Of a stretch of DNA of 64,000 nucleotides, positions 19,052 to 57,523 are shown piece by piece. Under the pieces are notes generated by a model. That model did not search any database, was not told the origin of the DNA, and worked only from the letters and a program-made list of their open reading frames with translations. How positions within the stretch are numbered: the stretch's first letter is position 1; the number at the start of each line of letters is the position of its first letter. The DNA comes from Saonia sp. (GTDB lineage: Bacteria > Bacteroidota > Bacteroidia > Flavobacteriales > Flavobacteriaceae), in contig JBATTK010000133.1 in assembly GCA_049670505.1 (NCBI GenBank), positions 4,681 to 68,680 on the forward strand. The letters are read 5' to 3'. The position numbers were made by a program, and so were the translations under genes.

Positions 19052-20755
19052 ATGAGCGAAGATATTGTTGAATTAAAGGAAGATGTTTCCCAATCACCCC
19101 TATACAGCGGTGATCTTGCTCCCGTACCACTTGCACAACGTACCTGGAGCAAATGGCATTTAGCAGCTATCTGGGTAGGTATGGCGGTTTGTATCCCTAC
19201 CTATTTATTGGCTTCATACATGATTAAAACCGGATTGAATTGGTATGAGGCACTGTTGATCATAGGTTTGGCCAATCTGATTATTACCATACCCATGGTC
19301 CTCAATGGGCATGCCGGAGTAAAGTACGGAATTCCTTTTCCCGTAATAGGCCGAGCGGTTTTTGGGATAAAAGGTATACATCTGGCCTCGATAACAAGGG
19401 GAATTATAGCCTGTGGCTGGTTCGGGGTACAAACTTGGATCGGAGGTTTGGCCATCTATGCTATTTTCAATGCGGTTACAGGAACCCAAGGAGAACTGGG
19501 GCTGTCCCTTGGTAAGTTTATAGGCTTTATTATTTTTTGGTTTATCAATATCTACTTTATCTGGAAAGGCACGGAGAGCATCAAATGGTTGGAAGCCTAT
19601 TCCGCCCCGATCCTTGTCGCTATGGGATTGGCATTGATATGGTGGGGCTATGATCAAGCGGATGGTTTTTCCATTGTACTGCAACAAAGTGATCAATTGG
19701 AGAGACCGGCCGCTACATTTTCGACCGAAAACGGAAATACCTATCTATACCTGAACGCCCTTAAAAATAAAGATGGGAGTATCAAGGTAAATGATTACAA
19801 ATTACTAATGCCCAATGGTGACGGAAAATGGAAACCCTATACTTCGGAGCCCATAGCCGTTGATCGATTTTTACATGAAGCATCGGTATCCAGGGAACAA
19901 AGCTTGCAAGTTCAATTTAGAAATACAGAGACCGAACGCCCTATACTTTCGAGTATTGTTACGGCTTCTTTTTTGAATGCCGATGCAGGCGCCGGTTCCA
20001 AACTATGGAGCTATCTGTTATGGCTTACCGCCATGGTAGGTTTTTGGGCTACGATGTCCATAAGCATTGCGGATATAACTCGATATGCTAAAACACAAAA
20101 AGATCAGATTGCCGGCCAGTTTATTGGTCTGCCGGGAACCATGATGCTCTATTCCTTTGTCGGGATTTTTGTTACCTGCGCGGCGGTAATCAACTTTAAA
20201 AACGTACTTATTGCAGATGATGCGCCATGGGACCCCGTTTCCCTTATAGCGAATTTTGAAAATCCGATCGTGATCGTCATTGCCCAGATATTTTTGTTGA
20301 TCGCTACGCTCAGTACCAATATTGCAGCGAATGTAATTGCACCGGCAAATGCTTTTTCAAATGTATTCCCAAAAAAGATAAGCTTTAGAATGGGCGGCGT
20401 CATAACGGGAATCATTGGTATAGTAATAGCGCCATGGTGGTTGTTGAATGAAATATCGGGTTTTCTAATTTTTGTAAGCGGATTATTAGGACCGGTGCTG
20501 GGAATCTTAATTGTAGATTATTTTGTAGTGCGAAAGAAGAACCTTGCCCTGGCAGAGTTGTATAAGGAAAATGGAACGTATTCCTACGGGAAATTAGGGG
20601 TTAATTGGGCTGCTATGATAGCGCTCTTCACCGGTGTGTTTTTGGCCCTTATCGGTTACTGGGTGCCACAACTTAATTTTCTGTATTCCCTTTCATGGTT
20701 TACCGGATTTATTATTTCTTCCGTATTGTATTATATATTAATGATAAAAAAATAA
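19052..20755 (+). CDS. NCS1-family nucleobase:cation symporter
   Basis: Twelve-TM NCS1-like profile (..ISIADITRYAK..). ATG 19052 is preferred over the listed TTG 19040, which overlaps the upstream stop. Carries an insert of about 100 aa at 19682-19999. Confidence 0.8.
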   Translation: MSEDIVELKEDVSQSPLYSGDLAPVPLAQRTWSKWHLAAIWVGMAVCIPTYLLASYMIKTGLNWYEALLIIGLANLIITIPMVLNGHAGVKYGIPFPVIGRAVFGIKGIHLASITRGIIACGWFGVQTWIGGLAIYAIFNAVTGTQGELGLSLGKFIGFIIFWFINIYFIWKGTESIKWLEAYSAPILVAMGLALIWWGYDQADGFSIVLQQSDQLERPAATFSTENGNTYLYLNALKNKDGSIKVNDYKLLMPNGDGKWKPYTSEPIAVDRFLHEASVSREQSLQVQFRNTETERPILSSIVTASFLNADAGAGSKLWSYLLWLTAMVGFWATMSISIADITRYAKTQKDQIAGQFIGLPGTMMLYSFVGIFVTCAAVINFKNVLIADDAPWDPVSLIANFENPIVIVIAQIFLLIATLSTNIAANVIAPANAFSNVFPKKISFRMGGVITGIIGIVIAPWWLLNEISGFLIFVSGLLGPVLGILIVDYFVVRKKNLALAELYKENGTYSYGKLGVNWAAMIALFTGVFLALIGYWVPQLNFLYSLSWFTGFIISSVLYYILMIKK

Positions 20756-20756
20756 G

Positions 20757-22139
20757 ATGTCGATTTTAATTAAAAATGGTACGGTGGTTACGGCTTCGGA
20801 AAGTTACATCGCCGATGTATATACCAAAGGTGAAAAAATAATAGCTATTGGAAAAGATTTGAATTTCGAAGCGGATCGGATTATTGATGCTACGGATAAA
20901 TTGGTACTTCCTGGCGGTATCGATCCGCATGTGCATTTAGATATGCCCTTTATGGGCACTTATTCCAGCGATGATTATGAAACAGGAACCCGTGCGGCCC
21001 TTCATGGGGGAACCACCATGGTGATAGATTTTATATTGCAGACCCAAGGGGATACTTTGGCGAATGCATTAAAAACTTGGCAACAAAAATCCAAAGGCAA
21101 GGCAATCGGCGACTACTCCTATCATATGGCAGTGACGGATTTTAATGATTCGGTCGCCAAGGAAGTAGCGCATATGATCAACGAGGAAGGCATTACCTCC
21201 TTTAAAACCTTTATGGCCTATAAGGGAGCGCTAATGATAGATGATGGACAAATGGTGCAACTCATGAAGGTGGTTAAAAAACATGGCGGTCTAGTGACCG
21301 TTCATGCAACGAACGGCGATATGATCGACTCCTTGGTTGCCAAGAACAGGGCCGAAGGAAATCTGTCTCCCTTGTACCATTACTTATCCCAACCAGAGGT
21401 TACTGAAGCGGAGGCCTCTGCTAGATTCGCGGATATGCTCCATTATACGGACTGTCCGGGATACATTGTGCATATGACTTGTGAAGGGGCGCTTAACGCC
21501 GTTAGGAAAGCAACACAACGAAATCAAAAGGTGTTCGTAGAAACCTGTACCCAATATTTGTTATTAGATGCTTCCCTATATGAAAAGGATTTTGAAGGCG
21601 CCAAATGGGTGATGAGTCCACCCCTTCGGGAGAAAAAAGATCAGACAGCCTTATGGTCGGGAATTAATCAAGGTTTGGTACAGGTGGTGGGTACCGATCA
21701 TTGCCCCTTTACGTGGGAACAGAAAAAAATGGGAAAGGATGATTTTTCCAAGATTCCTAACGGCCATCCGGCTATAGAACACCGTATGGAATTGCTGTAC
21801 TCCGAGGGAGTGCATCAAGGAAAAATATCGCTCACAAAATTTGTTGAGCTAAGCGCTACCAATGCCGCAAAAATATTTGGGATGTATCCCAGAAAAGGAA
21901 CCATTGCCATTGGGTCAGATGCGGATCTGGTCGTGTTCAACCCTAAAAAGGAACATGCCATTTCTGTAGAGACCCACCATATGAATTGTGATTATTCCGC
22001 TTATGAAGGAAAAAAAGTGATGGGTAAAACCGAAAGCGTTATTTTAAGGGGCCAAGTGGCTATAGAAAATGGAGAATGTAAGCTTAAGGCCGGCCATGGT
22101 GAATTTATCTCTAGAAATAAAGTATCAAAGGTGATATAA
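20757..22139 (+). CDS. hydA: dihydropyrimidinase / D-hydantoinase
   Basis: Cyclic amidohydrolase with metal motif GGIDPHVHLDMPF. 460 aa. Confidence 0.9.
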   Translation: MSILIKNGTVVTASESYIADVYTKGEKIIAIGKDLNFEADRIIDATDKLVLPGGIDPHVHLDMPFMGTYSSDDYETGTRAALHGGTTMVIDFILQTQGDTLANALKTWQQKSKGKAIGDYSYHMAVTDFNDSVAKEVAHMINEEGITSFKTFMAYKGALMIDDGQMVQLMKVVKKHGGLVTVHATNGDMIDSLVAKNRAEGNLSPLYHYLSQPEVTEAEASARFADMLHYTDCPGYIVHMTCEGALNAVRKATQRNQKVFVETCTQYLLLDASLYEKDFEGAKWVMSPPLREKKDQTALWSGINQGLVQVVGTDHCPFTWEQKKMGKDDFSKIPNGHPAIEHRMELLYSEGVHQGKISLTKFVELSATNAAKIFGMYPRKGTIAIGSDADLVVFNPKKEHAISVETHHMNCDYSAYEGKKVMGKTESVILRGQVAIENGECKLKAGHGEFISRNKVSKVI

Positions 22140-22144
22140 ATTAT

Positions 22145-22235
22145 GAGTTAAGAATTAAGAGTTAAGAGTTAAGAATTAAGAGTTAGGAGTTATGAGTTAG
22201 GAGTTATGAGTTAGGAATTAAGAGTTATGAGTTAC
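22145..22235. repeat. 13 tandem heptamers GA[G/A]TTAN (upstream arm of the four-helix-bundle element)
   Basis: Direct reading: gagttaa gaattaa gagttaa gagttaa gaattaa gagttag gagttat gagttag gagttat gagttag gaattaa gagttat gagttac. Confidence 0.9.
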
Positions 22236-22617
22236 GAAACAGAAAAACGGAACTGAAAGGAAAAGTATCATAGCTGATAAAACATACAGTTTTGCTTTAA
22301 AAATCATAGCGATTTATAAAGATTTAAATAATGAAAAGGAATTTTTGCTTTCCAAACAAATTCTTAAATCAGGGACTTCAATAGGGGCCAATGTGAATGA
22401 GGCTATAGCTGCGGTTTCAAAAAAGGATTTTGTAAACAAACTTGGGATTTCTTTGAAAGAAGCTAGGGAAACAATGTATTGGTTAAACCTTTTAAAGGAT
22501 AGTGGTTATATCGATAATGAAAAGTTTAAAAATATGAATGCCGAATGTGATGAGATAATTAGAATTTTAAGTAGCATCATTCTCACCACCAAAGAACGCT
22601 ATTTAACTCATAATTAA
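22227..22617 (+). CDS. four-helix-bundle protein (23S rRNA intervening-sequence protein family), with an apparent frameshift near the 5' end
   Basis: Family-typical ..IIADKTYSFALKII..LLSKQILKSGTSIGANVNEA..KEARETMYWLNLL. The reading frame is open from 22231 but has no ATG/GTG/TTG before 22345. The ATG at 22227 is one frame off and stops after 9 codons. Confidence 0.7.
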
Positions 22618-22641
22618 TAATTCAAAACTCATAATTAAACA
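22603..22641. repeat. downstream arm of the four-helix-bundle element (taactca taattaa taattca aaactca taattaa)
   Basis: Heptamer units that are the reverse complement of the upstream GAGTTAT/AATTATG units. They abut the next ATG at 22646. Confidence 0.7.
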
Positions 22642-22645
22642 AATT

Positions 22646-23512
22646 ATGCCAAGAAAAGTAAAATCAGGATTGATACAAATGAGTCTTCCCATGACGGAAG
22701 GGGAAGGAACCATACAGGAGATTATGGATGCCATGTATGACAAGCATATTCCATACATAGAGGAAGCGGGAAAGCAGGGCGTACAGATTTTGTGCTTGCA
22801 GGAAATCTTTAACACCCCCTATTTCTGTCCCGGTCAAGATAGTAAATGGTATGCATCTGCAGAAGCTGTTCCCGGACCTACCACCGAGAAAATGCAGGTA
22901 TATGCCAAAAAATACAATATGGTCATCATTGTACCTATTTATGAAAAGGAACAGGCCGGAATATTGTATAATACGGCCGCTATTATCGATGCCGATGGCA
23001 CCTACTTGGGCAAATACCGCAAAAACCATATTCCCCATACCACAGGATTCTGGGAGAAGTTTTTCTTTAAGCCCGGTAATTTAGGGTATCCCGTTTTTCA
23101 AACCAAATATGCAAAAGTGGGAATCTATATCTGTTATGACCGACATTTTCCCGATGGTGCACGGGTTCTAGGGCTAAACGGCGCCGAAATTGTGTATAAC
23201 CCTTCCGCTACGGTCGCAGGATTGAGCGAATATTTATGGAAACTGGAACAACCTGCCCATGCAGCGGCCAATGGGTATTTTATGGGGTGCATCAATCGTG
23301 TCGGGGAAGAAAAACCATGGAATTTGGGGAAGTTTTACGGACAATCCTATTTTGTGGATCCAAGGGGACAAATATTTGCAGAAGCCTCTAGGGATGACGA
23401 TGAGTTGTTGGTTGCGGAATTTGATCTAGACCTTATCGATGAAGTACGTTCCACGTGGCAGTTTTACAGAGATCGTCGTCCGGAAACCTATGGCAAGCTT
23501 ACCGAACTTTAA
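22646..23512 (+). CDS. beta-ureidopropionase-like carbon-nitrogen hydrolase (nitrilase superfamily)
   Basis: CN-hydrolase fold with the catalytic Cys in GIYICYDRHFPD. 288 aa. Operon context supports the role. Confidence 0.8.
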   Translation: MPRKVKSGLIQMSLPMTEGEGTIQEIMDAMYDKHIPYIEEAGKQGVQILCLQEIFNTPYFCPGQDSKWYASAEAVPGPTTEKMQVYAKKYNMVIIVPIYEKEQAGILYNTAAIIDADGTYLGKYRKNHIPHTTGFWEKFFFKPGNLGYPVFQTKYAKVGIYICYDRHFPDGARVLGLNGAEIVYNPSATVAGLSEYLWKLEQPAHAAANGYFMGCINRVGEEKPWNLGKFYGQSYFVDPRGQIFAEASRDDDELLVAEFDLDLIDEVRSTWQFYRDRRPETYGKLTEL

Positions 23513-23656
23513 GTGAAGTTCCGGTAAAATAGAACACATAACTCGGATTAAAATGATAGCCGAGAACAGCTGTCGGCGACAGTCCGGAAGACCATCGTCA
23601 TCAGCGTTCCTTTAATACAATCCAAGTACTCATTACTTTGTACTAAATACTAAATC

Positions 23657-24982
23657 ATGGCAGAATATAAGAGACCCACATCGGAAGAAGAGTTCAAAGA
23701 GAACTTCAAACAGAAAAAACAGTTGATGAATCCTACCGAAGCCTTTTATGAAAGCTCCCGTTGTTTATTTTGCTATGATGCGCCATGCATACAGGCCTGT
23801 CCTACGGGAATAGATATTCCTTTGTTTATTAAGCAGATTCAGACCGGGAATACAGAAGGCGCGGCAAGGACTATTTTTGATTCCAACTGGTTGGGAAATG
23901 CCTGCGGTGTAGTATGTCCTACCGGGGTTTTATGTGAGGGTGCCTGTGTCTACAACCATCAAGATGTACCCCCGATCCAAATAGGGAGGCTGCAAAATTA
24001 TACCACCCATACTACCATAGATAAGGACAAACTGCTCTATAGGCCCGGTACACCTATAGGTAAAAAGGTAGCTATTATAGGAGCCGGGCCGGCGGGAATA
24101 GCCTGCGCTTGTGAATTACGGATCCTAGGGGTAGAAGTCGATATTTTTGAGGCAAAGGACAAACCCTCCGGGCTTACCGTTTATGGTATAGCCCCCTATA
24201 AGATTACCAATGCCGAAGTGTTAAAGGAAGTAGCTTACCTGCAACAACAATTGGGATTTAACATCAACTACGAGGCCGCAATTACTTCAAAGGAACAATT
24301 AAAGAGGTTGGAAGAGGATTATGATGCTATTTTCATGGGTGTCGGATTGGGAAAAACAGCTGCTTTGAAATTAGAAGGGGAAGATATGGAAGGAGTCGTC
24401 GGTGCGGTAGAATTCATTGCCGAACTGCGAATGGAACACCACAGGCTTACCGTACCTGATACGGTAGTGGTTATCGGAGGGGGGAATACGGCCATGGATG
24501 CCGCTTCCGAAGCCGCGCGGATGGGTGCCAAAAAAGTAGTATTGGCTTATAGAAGGGATAAAGGAGCTATGGGTGCCTATGGCTTTGAATATGATCTGGC
24601 CATCAGTGCCGGAGTAGATAGTCTATTTAATGCCACTCCTCTTGCCATTATTGGGGACGGAAAAGTAACAGCTGTACAGTTTGCGAAAACCGAAATGGTA
24701 AACGGTAAACTAAAGGTATTGGAAAGCAGCGAATTTATAATCGATTGCGACATGGTCATTAAAGCTACCGGACAGGCAAAACAAGGGAGCTTTTATCAAT
24801 TGGTAGACAAGCTTGAAATTGATGCCATGACCCGTATTACAGTAAACGATAGCTATCAAACGTCCAATCCACAATATTTTGCGGGTGGTGATGCCGTAAA
24901 TGGAGGTGCAGAAGTGGTGAATGCGGCCTATGAAGGTAAAATGGCGGCTCAAGGAATCCATACATGGTTGATGGATAATTAG
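23657..24982 (+). CDS. preT: NAD-dependent dihydropyrimidine dehydrogenase subunit PreT
   Basis: N-terminal Fe-S Cys clusters (CLFCYDAPCIQACP, CGVVCPTGVLCEGAC). Two dinucleotide-binding motifs (IIGAGPAG, VIGGGNTAMD). Confidence 0.85.
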   Translation: MAEYKRPTSEEEFKENFKQKKQLMNPTEAFYESSRCLFCYDAPCIQACPTGIDIPLFIKQIQTGNTEGAARTIFDSNWLGNACGVVCPTGVLCEGACVYNHQDVPPIQIGRLQNYTTHTTIDKDKLLYRPGTPIGKKVAIIGAGPAGIACACELRILGVEVDIFEAKDKPSGLTVYGIAPYKITNAEVLKEVAYLQQQLGFNINYEAAITSKEQLKRLEEDYDAIFMGVGLGKTAALKLEGEDMEGVVGAVEFIAELRMEHHRLTVPDTVVVIGGGNTAMDAASEAARMGAKKVVLAYRRDKGAMGAYGFEYDLAISAGVDSLFNATPLAIIGDGKVTAVQFAKTEMVNGKLKVLESSEFIIDCDMVIKATGQAKQGSFYQLVDKLEIDAMTRITVNDSYQTSNPQYFAGGDAVNGGAEVVNAAYEGKMAAQGIHTWLMDN

Positions 24983-25227
24983 TAATTTAGAATTAAGAGT
25001 TAAGAATTGAAAATGATACGTTACACGGTTTGGAGATTACGACATAATTCAAAATTCATAACTCAATACTCATTACTATTAACTAGAAAAATATGGCAGC
25101 TCAAAGAATCAACAAATGGTTGATGGATAATTAAGAATTGAAAATGATACGTTATATTGTTTGGAGATTACAGCATGAACTGATTTAAAACTCATAACTC
25201 CGAACTCATAACTCATAATTAAAAACA
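24941..25227. repeat. tandem duplication (period about 152/131 bp) of the preT 3' end plus a heptamer-armed intergenic element
   Basis: atggcggctcaaggaatccatacatggttgatggataatta (24941-24981) recurs as atggcagctcaaagaatcaacaaatggttgatggataatta (25093-25133). The core gaattgaaaatgatacgtta..tttggagattac occurs at 25004 and 25135. Confidence 0.85.
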
Positions 25228-26571
25228 ATGGCAGATTTATCAATAGATTTTGCAGGTATAAAAGCACCAAATCCATTTTGGTTGGCTTCAGCTCCCCCTA
25301 CCAATTCGGGATACCAGATCATGAAGGCCTTTGATGCCGGATGGGGCGGTGCGGTATGGAAGACTTTGGGTGTACCAGTGGTGAACGTATCTAGCCGTTA
25401 TGGCTCCGTAAACTATAGGGATACCAAAATGATGGGTTTCAACAATATTGAGCTGATTACCGATAGGCCCTTGGTAGATAATCTTAGGGAAATAGAAGAA
25501 GTAAAGAAGTACTTTCCCGATCATGCCATAATTGCTTCCCTTATGGTAGAGAGCAGGGCCGAATGGGAACAGATTATCAAGGATGTGGAAAATTCCGGAG
25601 CGGATGGTATTGAATTGAATTTTGGCTGTCCACATGGGATGTGTGAACGCGGAATGGGATCCGCTGTCGGGCAAGAACCCGAAGTGCTTAAGACTATTGT
25701 AGGTTGGGTAAAGGAAGCTGCCCATATTCCGGTAATAACCAAACTTACCCCCAATATATCGGAAATTGTAGATCCCGGTCTTGCCGCTTACCAAGGGGGA
25801 TCCGATGCCATTTCTCTCATCAATACCATAAAGAGTATCGTAGGGATCGATCTGGATACCTATGCGCCCTTGCCGGTAGTAGATGGAAAAGGAACCAACG
25901 GAGGGTACTGTGGGCCAGCGGTAAAACCTATCGCCATGAATATGATAAAAGATTTGGCACAGCATCCTGAAATTTCAAAAATACCGATTTCAGGTATCGG
26001 GGGAGTGGAAAATTGGCGCGATGTGGTAGAATTTATACTGCTAGGGGCAACTTCTGTTCAAGTGTGTACCGCAGTGATGCATTATGGATTCGGTATCGTT
26101 AGGGAAATGGAAACAGGCCTACGCCAGTTTATGGACGACAAAGGCTACCATACCATTTATGATTTTGCCGGAAAAGCCTTGCCCAATGTAACCGAATGGA
26201 AACATCTAAATTTGAAGCACAAAGTGGTTGCTGAGATCGATTCCGACAAATGTGTGGGATGCGAACTTTGTTATATAGCGTGTGATGATGGTGCGCATCA
26301 GGCTATTTCACAATCGGAGGACAGAACCATTCGAATACCGAGTATCATTGAGGAGAATTGTGTGGGATGCAATCTGTGTTCTTTGGTCTGTCCTGTTGAA
26401 GATTGTATTACCATGGTACAGCGCGATGATGGTACGCAGCACCTCACTTGGGATGAACGTACCAAGGCCGATGATGTTCCCGTTAGTTTTAATGATGATA
26501 GGGCAGGAGGCAAAGGACACTATGTTCCAGCGCCTACGGACGCTTTAAATAATTATTACACTAAAAAATAA
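25228..26571 (+). CDS. preA: NAD-dependent dihydropyrimidine dehydrogenase subunit PreA
   Basis: DHODH-like barrel (ELNFGCPHGM) plus a C-terminal 2x[4Fe-4S] ferredoxin (CVGCELCYIAC, CVGCNLCSLVCP). Confidence 0.9.
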   Translation: MADLSIDFAGIKAPNPFWLASAPPTNSGYQIMKAFDAGWGGAVWKTLGVPVVNVSSRYGSVNYRDTKMMGFNNIELITDRPLVDNLREIEEVKKYFPDHAIIASLMVESRAEWEQIIKDVENSGADGIELNFGCPHGMCERGMGSAVGQEPEVLKTIVGWVKEAAHIPVITKLTPNISEIVDPGLAAYQGGSDAISLINTIKSIVGIDLDTYAPLPVVDGKGTNGGYCGPAVKPIAMNMIKDLAQHPEISKIPISGIGGVENWRDVVEFILLGATSVQVCTAVMHYGFGIVREMETGLRQFMDDKGYHTIYDFAGKALPNVTEWKHLNLKHKVVAEIDSDKCVGCELCYIACDDGAHQAISQSEDRTIRIPSIIEENCVGCNLCSLVCPVEDCITMVQRDDGTQHLTWDERTKADDVPVSFNDDRAGGKGHYVPAPTDALNNYYTKK

Positions 26572-49432: not shown

Positions 49433-49510
49433 CATCTAACATCTAACATCTAACATCTAACATCTAACATCTAACATCTAACATCTAACATCTAACATCT
49501 AACATCTAAC
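49433..49510. repeat. (CATCTAA)x11 perfect tandem heptamer ending 2 nt before the ruvA ATG
   Basis: Direct reading: 11 perfect copies at 49433-49509, then c-at-ATG (ATG at 49513). Confidence 0.95.
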
Positions 49511-49512
49511 AT

Positions 49513-50094
49513 ATGATAACCCATCTAAAGGGAAAATTGGTTGAAAAGAACCCCACTTATGTGATTATTGAATGCGCTGGCGTAGGCTATTTTGTAAATA
49601 TTTCACTGCATACATTTTCCAAGATAGAGGATACGGAAAATATACAGTTGTTTACGCATCTTCAGGTAAAGGAGGATTCCCATACTTTGTTCGGTTTTGC
49701 GGAGAAATCCGAGCGCGACATATTCCGGTTATTAATATCGGTTTCCGGGATCGGTTCAAGTACGGCAAGGACTATGCTGTCTTCCATGTCACCTTTCCAG
49801 ATCAGGGATGCAATCGCCCTGGGAGATGTAGCATCCATACAAGCGGTAAAAGGCATTGGTCTCAAAACTGCACAGCGGGTAATTTTGGATTTAAAGGACA
49901 AGGTTTTAAAAATCTACGATATTGACGAAGTTTCCACTATTTCAAACAATACAAATAAAGAAGAAGCGTTATCTGCATTAGAGGTTCTTGGATTTGTCAG
50001 AAAACACGCCGAAAAGGCTGTTGACAGGGTTTTAAGCCAAGATTCTTCGCTAAGCGTAGAGGACATTATAAAATATACGCTGAAAAATTTGTAA
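49513..50094 (+). CDS. ruvA: Holliday junction DNA helicase subunit RuvA
   Basis: MITHLKGKL..GVGY start and HhH motifs (VSGIGSSTA, VKGIGLKTAQRV). 193 aa. Confidence 0.9.
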   Translation: MITHLKGKLVEKNPTYVIIECAGVGYFVNISLHTFSKIEDTENIQLFTHLQVKEDSHTLFGFAEKSERDIFRLLISVSGIGSSTARTMLSSMSPFQIRDAIALGDVASIQAVKGIGLKTAQRVILDLKDKVLKIYDIDEVSTISNNTNKEEALSALEVLGFVRKHAEKAVDRVLSQDSSLSVEDIIKYTLKNL

Positions 50095-57281: not shown

Positions 57282-57311
57282 GGCCTGAAAAGCTCAAGTT
57301 TTCCAAAGACC

Positions 57312-57523
57312 TAAGGACAAAAGACAAAAGACAAAAGACGAAAGACGGAAGACGGAAGACCGGAAATCAGTGTTCGGAAACTAGAAACTGAAAACCAAGA
57401 CCTTGAACCTTAACCCTTGAGCCAAACTCCTAGAAACCAGAAACGGAACTCCTGCCAACTGACACTGCTTACTGAAGACTGTTTTTCCAAAAACCAAAAC
57501 CTTGAACCGTAAACCTTGAACTT
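57312..57523. repeat. heptamer-periodic intergenic repeat tract
   Basis: aaaagac x3, gaaagac, ggaagac x2 (57319-57360). Degenerate 7-nt units follow (cttgaac cttaacc cttgagc ... cttgaac cgtaaac cttgaac). Confidence 0.8.

Follow-up and report, generated by a model that had tools for sequence, protein, structure and literature searches.

A heptamer-armed cassette between two operon genes

We analyzed a stretch of 64,000 nucleotides (nt) from the genome of Saonia sp. (Flavobacteriaceae; GenBank assembly GCA_049670505.1, contig JBATTK010000133.1, positions 4,681 to 68,680 of the forward strand), which we refer to as the window and whose own numbering is used throughout. A 505-bp spacer in it separates the stop codon of a dihydropyrimidinase gene from the ATG of a carbon-nitrogen hydrolase gene and is filled exactly by three parts, namely, an array of tandem heptamers (5' arm), a reading frame of the four-helix-bundle family PF05635, and a second array of complementary heptamers (3' arm). 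Together, they are called the cassette here, and the two flanking genes are called host genes (Table 1). This anatomy of the spacer at 22141 to 22645, with its 13 heptamers, four-helix-bundle open reading frame (ORF), and complementary 3' arm, had been proposed in an initial annotation made from the sequence alone; Tandem Repeats Finder (TRF), the PF05635 and TIGR02436 profiles, and the match between the arms all agreed with it.

Table 1. Positions of the cassette, its host genes, and related hairpins in the window
Feature	Position	Strand	Evidence or remark
Dihydropyrimidinase, upstream host gene	20757..22139	+	TIGR02033, 600.5 bits (cut-off 393), equivalog; Pfam Amidohydro_1
5' arm, 13.4 tandem heptamers	22141..22234	+	TRF: period 7, 83% matches
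Ancestral cassette start ATG, now of a 9-codon ORF	22227..22256	+	ATG in the last heptamer; ends at TGA 22254-22256
PF05635/TIGR02436 four-helix-bundle frame	22231..22617	+	128 codons (22231-22614) plus stop TAA 22615-22617; domain complete
3' arm, complementary heptamers (AACTCAT, AATTAAT, ...)	22603..22641	+	Contains C, without G
Carbon-nitrogen hydrolase, downstream host gene	22646..23512	+	Pfam CN_hydrolase, E value 4.3e-64; no NCBIfam equivalog cut-off reached
Two gene-less hairpins, PreT-like/preA spacer	24983..25227	+	Arms from the heptamer family of the window cassette

The 5' arm, which adjoins the dihydropyrimidinase stop codon (TAA, 22137 to 22139), consists of the units GAGTTAA, GAATTAA, GAGTTAG, and GAGTTAT and is G rich and devoid of C. 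TRF reported the same array also with a period of 21 (4.7 copies, 87%). Four ATGs lie within it (22143, 22192, 22206, and 22227), the first three of which each meet a stop two codons on. The 3' arm takes in the final codons of the cassette frame together with its stop, ends 4 nt before the hydrolase ATG, and carries an exact 13-mer twice between 22603 and 22638 (at 22605 to 22617 and 22626 to 22638). The best match between the two arms covers 34 nt with 82% complementarity, several registers being possible. As an inverted-repeat score, we used the local alignment of the 5' arm against the reverse complement of the 3' arm, with the 99th percentile of 1,000 random placements as the threshold. 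This score was adopted because RNAduplex did not discriminate; on flanks of 135/180 nt, its energies for random placements (-48 ± 10 kcal/mol) did not differ in range from those for the cassettes. With segments placed around the Pfam domain, the cassette in the window scored 19.0, against a 99th percentile of 11.0 (here from 1,500 random placements), while wider segments gave 22.0 against 15.5 (1,000 random placements).

The frame between the arms matched PF05635 with an E value of 2.1e-29 (102.3 bits, cut-off 33.8, profile positions 2 to 105 of 106), the model TIGR02436 "four helix bundle protein" with 113.8 bits (cut-off 24), and the solved chain PDB 2rld with an E value of 2e-31. Its assignment to the protein family of the 23S rRNA intervening sequences (IVSs), as given in the initial annotation, is therefore sound, although the loss of the in-frame start codon, described below, had been overlooked. 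The names given to the flanking genes fared unevenly: dihydropyrimidinase is confirmed at the equivalog level, whereas "beta-ureidopropionase" comes from context only, because the hydrolase reaches no NCBIfam equivalog cut-off. An NCS1 permease gene is found upstream, and a PreT-like gene and preA (PreA by equivalog) are found downstream.

The cassette is located between protein-coding genes, outside any 23S rRNA gene (helix 25 or 45), and no Rfam match was found at E values of up to 1 within 20500 to 26000. Scans for sigma-70-type promoters, which do not cover Bacteroidota promoters, and for intrinsic terminators gave no more than shuffled sequences did. The last 21 nt of the dihydropyrimidinase gene (22119 to 22139) recur with 86% identity at 22262 to 22282, where the conserved part of the frame begins, right after the heptamer array, either by chance or as a trace of array growth.

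A decaying copy in the window

Between the in-frame stop at 22228 to 22230 and the TTG at 22345, the window frame has no ATG, GTG, or TTG. This TTG is the first canonical in-frame start, and its use would remove helix 1. In all 10 orthologues that we found in the same spacer of related operons (see below), the ATG that opens the ORF lies within the final heptamer of the 5' arm (AATTATGAGT...), and the protein begins with M-S-x-E-L-K. From the ATG to the conserved AAAAGTAT, the distance is 27 or 36 nt in the orthologues, as counted in L021, L023, and L024 (L numbers are our identifiers of loci, and C numbers those of contigs), and 34 nt in the window, so that the ATG at 22227 is out of frame and reads only the 9-codon ORF. 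Moreover, the 5' arm has 13 units in the window versus 3 to 5 in the 10 orthologues. The window copy is decaying, with an array grown from 3 to 5 units to 13 and an ATG out of frame. By these comparisons, its frame has probably become a pseudogene only recently; alternatively, the frameshift could be an assembly error, for which a run of five A's offers a possible explanation. When 20 relatives were searched with the cassette DNA itself, it was found in none of them, all matches being to the flanking genes or the heptamer array.

History of the cassette at this site

A protein scan with the dihydropyrimidinase, limited to one genome per species, recovered 80 loci, 75 of which hold both flanking genes. 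An orthologous PF05635 gene occupies the same spacer in 10 of these 75 (L014, L021, L023, L024, L031, L036, L042, L047, L048, and L052). The 10 orthologues were 70 to 76% identical to the window frame, and all of them were intact (127 to 134 amino acids). L036 comes from Ichthyenterobacterium magnum DSM 26283 and L014 from a Spongiimicrobium strain. Among the other 65 loci, we read 59 spacers (1 to 289 nt), leaving out six long ones without a PF05635 hit (L061, L063, L071, L074, L086, and L089). Both arms and the first ca. 25 codons remain in the spacer of L016, while only heptamers of the 3' arm remain in that of L037 and, in our reading, likewise in that of L049. Many other spacers hold unrelated hairpin repeats, and some have merely 8 to 15 nt.

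A host tree based on the two host genes comprised 43 rows (the window and 42 loci), with 33 loci left out for their truncated flanks or greater distance. Cassettes and remnants need 10 state changes on this tree, much of whose backbone is unsupported. Four well-supported small clades mix states (L048/L049; L037/L047/L064; L021 versus L039/L045/L084; and L016/L022). The gene tree of the 11 cassettes is congruent with the host tree in every part that one or the other resolves. The window and L014 group together with a support of 82/84 in the cassette tree and 99 in the host tree, and further groups are formed by L021, L024, and L036 and by L023, L031, L042, and L048 (98/99). Over the 55 pairs of the 11 cassettes, third-position divergence was 0.42 for the cassette gene and 0.48 for the adjacent 600 nt of both the upstream and the downstream host genes; the corresponding amino-acid divergences were 0.20, 0.12, and 0.065. 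Together, the agreement of the trees and the matched divergence suggest that the cassette is about as old as the split of these operons and was inherited with them.

These comparisons indicate that the cassette is old at this site, vertically inherited, and lost many times, rather than a recent insertion. The initial annotation had spoken of an inserted, possibly mobile cassette. As a recent event, this does not agree with the concordant trees, the divergence of 0.42 versus 0.48, the repeated loss with remnants, or the lack of any identical copy. The comparison of operons that it called for did reveal an orthologue in 10 of 75 loci rather than in all relatives, but the pattern is that of an old cassette lost repeatedly. 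No target-site duplication was definable from filled versus empty sites. The intact state of 10 of 10 orthologues and the amino-acid divergence of 0.20 against 0.42 at third positions argue for purifying selection on the cassette protein.

The dihydropyrimidinase protein itself was unusually uniform, with 72 to 92% identity across records of Flavobacteriaceae, Saprospiraceae, Chitinophagales, and Balneolaceae (L013 to L092). Given this uniformity, the operon itself may have been able to move between distant hosts.

Other spacers of the same operon also contain related structures. In the PreT-like/preA spacer of the window, the arms of the two gene-less hairpins pair ca. 24984 to 25008 with 25043 to 25077 and ca. 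25129 to 25143 with 25189 to 25218; their loops resemble each other (93% over 41 nt) but nothing else in the genome. The junction between them is duplicated, with a copy of the preA start fused to the last codons of the upstream gene (a 13-codon fusion). The region looks like a tandem duplication of ca. 125 nt spanning a gene end, a hairpin, and a gene start, and we read the hairpins as relics of a second, tandemly duplicated cassette. Hairpins of the same family were recognized by eye in this spacer in 8 of 55 related loci; in L090, it is occupied by a PF05635 gene with 52% identity to the window frame. The hydrolase/PreT-like spacer, also read by eye, contains an apparently intact cassette in L048, which has separate arms and a PF05635 gene from another subfamily, a truncated remnant of it in L024, an 82-nt gene-less hairpin of the GAGTTAT family in L021 and L036, and an ORF resembling a GxxExxY protein in L014.

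The dihydropyrimidinase/hydrolase spacer adds a time axis to the study of such elements, since the states of a single site in different genera of one bacterial family range from intact genes through a frameshifted copy and an internal deletion to bare arms. In view of this graded decay, such cassettes can leave gene-less heptamer hairpins as relics.

The layout across the PF05635 family

The genome (5.2 Mb, 40% G+C) holds 12 PF05635 hits, almost all of them in short spacers and with arms differing in sequence, and the family was present in 32 of the 41 genomes searched. We pooled the 12 loci of this genome with the best hit from each of 29 other Flavobacteriaceae genomes (n = 41). Inverted arms above the threshold were found in 29 of the 41 loci, 8 of the 12 in this genome and 21 of the 29 in relatives. 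As a control, we used the other ORFs of 95 to 165 amino acids between co-oriented neighbors in this genome, of which 7 of 294 reached the threshold (8/12 versus 7/294; Fisher p = 1.7e-9), with neighbors and control ORFs called by a crude ORF rule. Two of these seven were small GIY-YIG genes within another repeat family. Inverted arms are hence typical of PF05635 genes. The initial annotation had likened the layout to that of a 23S rRNA IVS and had asked for similar cassettes genome-wide. Both points gained weight from the recurrence of the arms, in this genome and in relatives, and from the parallels with the Coxiella IVS discussed below.

In 27 of the 29 significant loci, to which the following counts also refer, both neighbors were co-oriented with the cassette. 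The 5' arm matched itself best at a lag of 7 in 21 loci, as did the 3' arm in 21, and the median arm measured 37 nt, or ca. 5 units. The ATG was located inside the 5' arm in 5 loci and within 30 nt after it in 17, whereas the stop was in or against the 3' arm in 12 and followed within 30 nt by the beginning of that arm in 13. On the downstream side, the arms come within ca. 0 to 13 nt of the neighboring gene. The G-rich arm was on the 5' side in 26 loci (p = 1.5e-5). Such a polarity reads alike on either strand and is therefore by itself silent on the direction of transcription. Polarity and co-orientation together place the arm that is poor in G and rich in A right before the start codon of the following host gene. 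In view of how translation begins in Bacteroidota, this placement may be a target of selection.

Arm similarity was high where the proteins were >60% identical, nearly all of these pairs being at orthologous sites, and fell to background below ca. 50%. L102 differs in flanks and site from L106 and L107; their proteins are 60 to 62% identical, and the arms are still common to them (score of 21 to 22.5). Arms thus appear to travel and drift together with the gene. No second identical copy of the window ORF or of its loop was found in the genome, where only the heptamer arrays have matches elsewhere. A search of open-access full texts and bioRxiv for PF05635 genes that have heptamer or inverted arms but lie outside rRNA yielded no description; so far as this search reached, this old and widespread cassette type is seemingly undescribed in print.

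Folding and pairing of the arms

As the initial annotation had expected, RNAfold of 22137 to 22648 paired the outer arms, with a minimum free energy of -99.6 kcal/mol (z score of -2.97, 0 of 100 shuffles as good). The opposite strand folded equally nonrandomly (z score of -2.98). In the alignment of the orthologues, RNAalifold predicted a long-range helix in 11 of 11 (columns 87 to 99 with 480 to 492), beside the start and stop codons, and the predicted duplex span included the ATG in all 10 orthologues and the stop codon in 9 of them. The covariation term was nearly nil (-0.23 kcal/mol).

The tests for pairing in the sense RNA gave no positive signal. Across the 29 significant loci, there was no G-U excess (40 sense-wobble transition mismatches versus 42 of the opposite kind), isolated mismatches were balanced (4 versus 3), and sense mini-hairpins made from the arms were the more stable in only 16 of the 29 (Wilcoxon p = 0.67). 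Among the 11 orthologous cassettes, own-arm pairing scored 16.4 versus 16.6 for pairing across lineages (permutation p = 0.63). The identity of the noncoding arms (0.64 and 0.60 in nine orthologues, with L023 left out) was about that of third codon positions (0.58). By these measures, what is conserved seems to be the motif family in both arms (11 lineages) rather than the pairing register, and selection for sense-RNA pairing left no detectable signature in the sequence tests. An RNase III gene is present in the genome.

Repeat period and cargo

The only PDDEXK_3 (GxxExxY-type) frame of the genome (L130, C18:56740-57090) has a single internal TAA and is also bracketed by inverted arms. PDDEXK_3 was present in 18 of the 41 genomes. 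We fetched 30 loci (L130 to L159), one of which was too near a contig end, and among the 29 scored, 26 had inverted arms above the same threshold. The best lag of these 5' arms was 8, 9, or 10 in 23 of 26 and 7 in just 1 of 26, as opposed to 21 of 29 for the PF05635 5' arms (Fisher p = 1.6e-7). The G-rich 5' polarity was likewise absent (11/26, versus 26/29 in PF05635), and the unit cores were of the types CACAGAG, CGCAAAG, and CACGAAT. Arm period depends on the cargo, being 7 nt for PF05635 and 8 to 10 nt for PDDEXK_3. Two unrelated small proteins have in common a design in which the gene lies between inverted arms of tandem units, each with its own unit length. This contrast makes a hypothesis open to a binding assay. 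We found no paper describing PDDEXK_3 cassettes with inverted arms.

Two small GIY-YIG genes (C24:41528-41848 and C71:1758-2045; Pfam E values of 2e-16 and 5e-19) lie between long inverted repeats. The arms of the C24 gene belong to a hairpin repeat family with a core like GTCAGGTCGAGCGCAGTCGAGACC, and hairpins of this type fill the dihydropyrimidinase/hydrolase spacer in L017, L032, L039, L040, L041, and L056.

Heptamer arrays across the genome

Seven was the commonest tandem period in the genome, with 459 of 1,992 arrays (132 for period 6 and 200 for period 8), and 318 of the 459 lay outside crude ORFs, which cover 86% of the DNA. In co-oriented spacers, 65 of 81 G-rich arrays were in the half nearer the upstream gene (p = 3.6e-8). 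Gene-less arrays of the unit family of the window cassette occur at at least 14 other loci of the genome. When TRF arrays were paired by unit, only seven inverted pairs resulted, because short arms score below the limit of TRF. Single-linkage clustering of the units at one mismatch was uninformative, since 444 of 450 arrays fell into one cluster. The rule that every abundant heptamer family has a resident cassette also failed, as such a cassette is missing from this genome for four of its six commonest units (AATACTG with 27 arrays, AAAAGAC with 16, AAACCAG with 15, and AACCTTG with 12).

A perfect CATCTAA array of 11.4 copies (window 49433 to 49512) ends just before an ATG at 49514; equally perfect arrays of this unit are found at C169:72592, C146:7777, and C106:20227, and the unit is also present in the 3' flank of the PF05635 gene of C152. 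Other intergenic regions are mosaics of several heptamer families (window 57290 to 57520; C58:27803-28081; C50:109285-109478; C81:48180-48600; and C13:60930-61069), with units AAAGACC, CAGTATT, GGAAACT, AACCTTG, and CATAACT-like, whose order partly recurs between loci. The C58 mosaic includes a block of ca. 200 nt in two tandem copies. Some mosaic modules are arm units of PF05635 paralogues elsewhere in the genome.

What the cassette may be

We favor, with a probability of roughly 0.4, the reading that an old, promoter-less cassette, passed on by vertical descent and here in decay, occupies the spacer as a non-rRNA form of the ORF-bearing 23S rRNA IVS, with arrays that are cognate to its protein. 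The unit would consist of the gene of a small ring-forming four-helix-bundle protein and two inverted arrays of 7-nt units, extending from the upstream host stop to the cassette ATG and from the cassette stop to the downstream host ATG, and would ride on the operon transcript. The arrays would be cognate cis sites of the cassette's own protein, each protein lineage having its own motif family, whose units are read in tandem, in an arrangement resembling that of a REP-associated gene between its own repeats. In the operon RNA, the inverted arms would pair, and cleavage by RNase III would be a likely consequence rather than the selected function; it is likely if the stem forms because the stem of the Coxiella S23p IVS is cut by this enzyme and the genome has an RNase III gene. 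We infer the binding of the protein to the repeats (as DNA or RNA), the formation and cutting of the stem, and the colonization of new sites. The correspondence between a pentameric ring and a median arm of ca. 5 units is only suggestive. If spacers of this kind are cassettes, they should be annotated neither as regulatory leaders of the host genes nor as terminators.

A somewhat less probable alternative is an IVS-like element acting purely at the RNA level, in which the arms serve to form a stem in the operon transcript that conceals the cassette start codon, and RNase III splits the mRNA and so sets the stability or translation of the cassette and the downstream gene, the periodicity being incidental. 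Several observations are in its favor. The homologous Coxiella stem is cut in vitro (PMC4990558), the genome encodes RNase III, the predicted fold pairs the arms, a long-range helix is kept in all orthologues, with the ATG and nearly always the stop codon in the duplex span, and the cassettes are co-oriented with both neighbors in 27 of 29 loci, without an excess of promoter- or terminator-like sequences. However, G-U pairs are not above A-C mismatches, the sense hairpin is favored in little more than half of the loci, the antisense fold is equally nonrandom, and lineage-specific covariation is lacking. Besides, the stems are AU rich, imperfect, ca. 370 to 430 nt apart, and located between translated genes, and the arm lengths are unequal (13 units versus ca. 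5 in the window). A requirement for a stem explains neither the tandem periodicity nor its dependence on the cargo. We ranked the cognate arrays above this alternative because a protein reading its own units predicts both the shared design and the unit length, while a bare stem or slippage predicts neither.

Slippage is the basis of a second, quite improbable view, by which arrays arise in AT-rich spacers, template switching in the quasi-palindrome keeps them symmetric, and the arms have no function. The genomic excess of period 7, largely outside crude ORFs, is what it would expect, as are the lability of array length (13 units versus 3 to 5 in the orthologues, and a 3' arm of 83 nt in L052), arm identities close to that of third codon positions, and a mismatch spectrum without strand bias, as predicted by homogenization at the DNA level. 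Polymerase slippage is also the cause to which a published heptamer excess was ascribed (PMC4692102). Yet by-products of this kind should not single out one protein family (8/12 PF05635 genes versus 7/294 other small operon genes), differ in period by cargo family inside the same genomes, accompany the gene to a different site (L102 versus L106 and L107), or retain the motif family in both arms of 11 of 11 lineages despite near-saturated synonymous sites. Least probable of all is a classical DNA transposon or miniature inverted-repeat transposable element (MITE) hopping between spacers, with the arms as terminal inverted repeats for an enzyme encoded elsewhere or by the host. Twelve paralogous cassettes in 12 operons, all placed between genes, related cassettes with related arms at nonorthologous sites, and gene-less hairpins of the same family in other spacers would suit it, but no two ORFs or loops in the genome are alike, only arrays matching; the pairs with the highest protein identity across genomes are all at orthologous sites; and the history at the window site is one of vertical descent with loss, with no definable target-site duplication. 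As each copy has arms of its own sequence, one enzyme for all of them would need to recognize structure, not sequence.

The reading of the arrays as sites of the cassette's own protein has points against it as well. Several of the 29 loci from relatives are mutually orthologous, so that the counts across relatives overstate independence and do not represent independent events. The null results of the RNA tests are of limited power, with 82 transition mismatches in total and 7 isolated ones. Four of the six commonest heptamer families lack a PF05635 cassette with matching arms in this genome, which leaves a partial correspondence rather than a clean map of one protein to one repeat. Arrays persist where the gene is broken or gone, both in this genome and in relatives, and the protein is therefore not needed in cis. 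To our knowledge, PF05635 has no catalytic or sequence-specific activity, and we know of no binding experiment or model for a stand-alone member. Finally, a reader of single-stranded RNA needs no complementary arm; the inverted symmetry demands either the reading of duplex DNA or a role for pairing.

A broader extension, unlikely as it stands, is that PF05635 rings recognize tandem 7-nt units by their sequence, ca. one per subunit of the pentamer, and seed and maintain the intergenic heptamer repeats of bacteria. Along with PDDEXK_3, with its units of 8 to 10 nt, and perhaps small GIY-YIG proteins, they would form "repeat-armed" selfish cassettes of operons and rRNA genes, long-lived by vertical descent and leaving gene-less hairpins behind. 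If true, this would give one answer to two puzzles, the role of the S23p protein in rRNA IVSs and the overrepresentation of 7-base repeats between bacterial genes.

Comparison with known systems

The closest parallel is the ORF-bearing IVS in the 23S rRNA of Coxiella burnetii. According to its description (PMC4990558), tandem heptamers lie just upstream of the S23p start and vary in number between strains, the first heptamer is the site at which RNase III cleaves the stem in vitro, the ORF has undergone reductive evolution, solved relatives are homopentameric rings, and ORF-bearing IVSs also occur in Leptospira and others (cited therein). The window cassette likewise has a PF05635/S23p ORF between stem-forming terminal inverted repeats, tandem heptamers of variable number directly before the start codon, and an ORF prone to decay, here by a frameshift. 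It differs from the rRNA IVSs in its location between protein genes of an operon, with arms adjoining the stop and start codons of the neighbors. Excision by RNase III, a feature of the IVSs, would apply to it by analogy.

The accessory protein of diversity-generating retroelements, Avd, is a further relative. Homologous four-helix-bundle proteins of the same superfamily are involved, and according to PMC10053308, Avd belongs to the same family as PF05635. The window frame differs in that the bAvd model PF22296 gives it 20.6 bits where 40 are required. A single RVT_1 hit was obtained in the genome; it falls on contig C34, whereas all 12 PF05635 hits are on other contigs, and no search was made for template and variable repeats. 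A link to a reverse transcriptase, either of the Avd type or through extension of ends by repeated copying of a short template, is hence unsupported, although such end extension would also yield a G-rich arm on the 5' side on both strands.

Regarding the repeats, intergenic heptamers in excess have been described as GGGAATC arrays in Xanthomonas and as heptanucleotide repeats in Calothrix and Nostoc, with ca. 70 convergent (inverted) pairs per Xanthomonas genome (PMC4692102). There, the excess is ascribed to polymerase slippage, and quadruplexes are discussed; the text draws no link to S23p or PF05635, with 0 occurrences of "S23" or "intervening" in it. As in that study, the arrays analyzed here show an intergenic excess of period 7, inverted pairs, and length variation among close relatives.

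Avd partners a reverse transcriptase and the RNA of its element, and RAYT, for its part, is a Y1 transposase with a known catalytic fold, REP and REPIN being its repeats. Insertion sequence or MITE hallmarks are absent from the window cassette, as there are no near-identical copies of ORF or loops, and it carries no Y1 (HUH) transposase, its Pfam hits being PF05635 and a weak bAvd. Its arms are tandem 7-nt units, not single palindromic REPs, and each genome can have many paralogous cassettes with their own arms. The PDDEXK_3 cassettes differ from it in their nuclease-fold cargo, their period of 8 to 10 nt, and the lack of G-rich 5' arm polarity, but they are equally small promoter-less genes inside inverted arms of short units, with gene-less hairpin derivatives in spacers. 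With the REP/RAYT system, the window cassette shares a mostly vertically inherited gene between inverted copies of its own repeat family, together with gene-less hairpins dispersed among intergenic regions.

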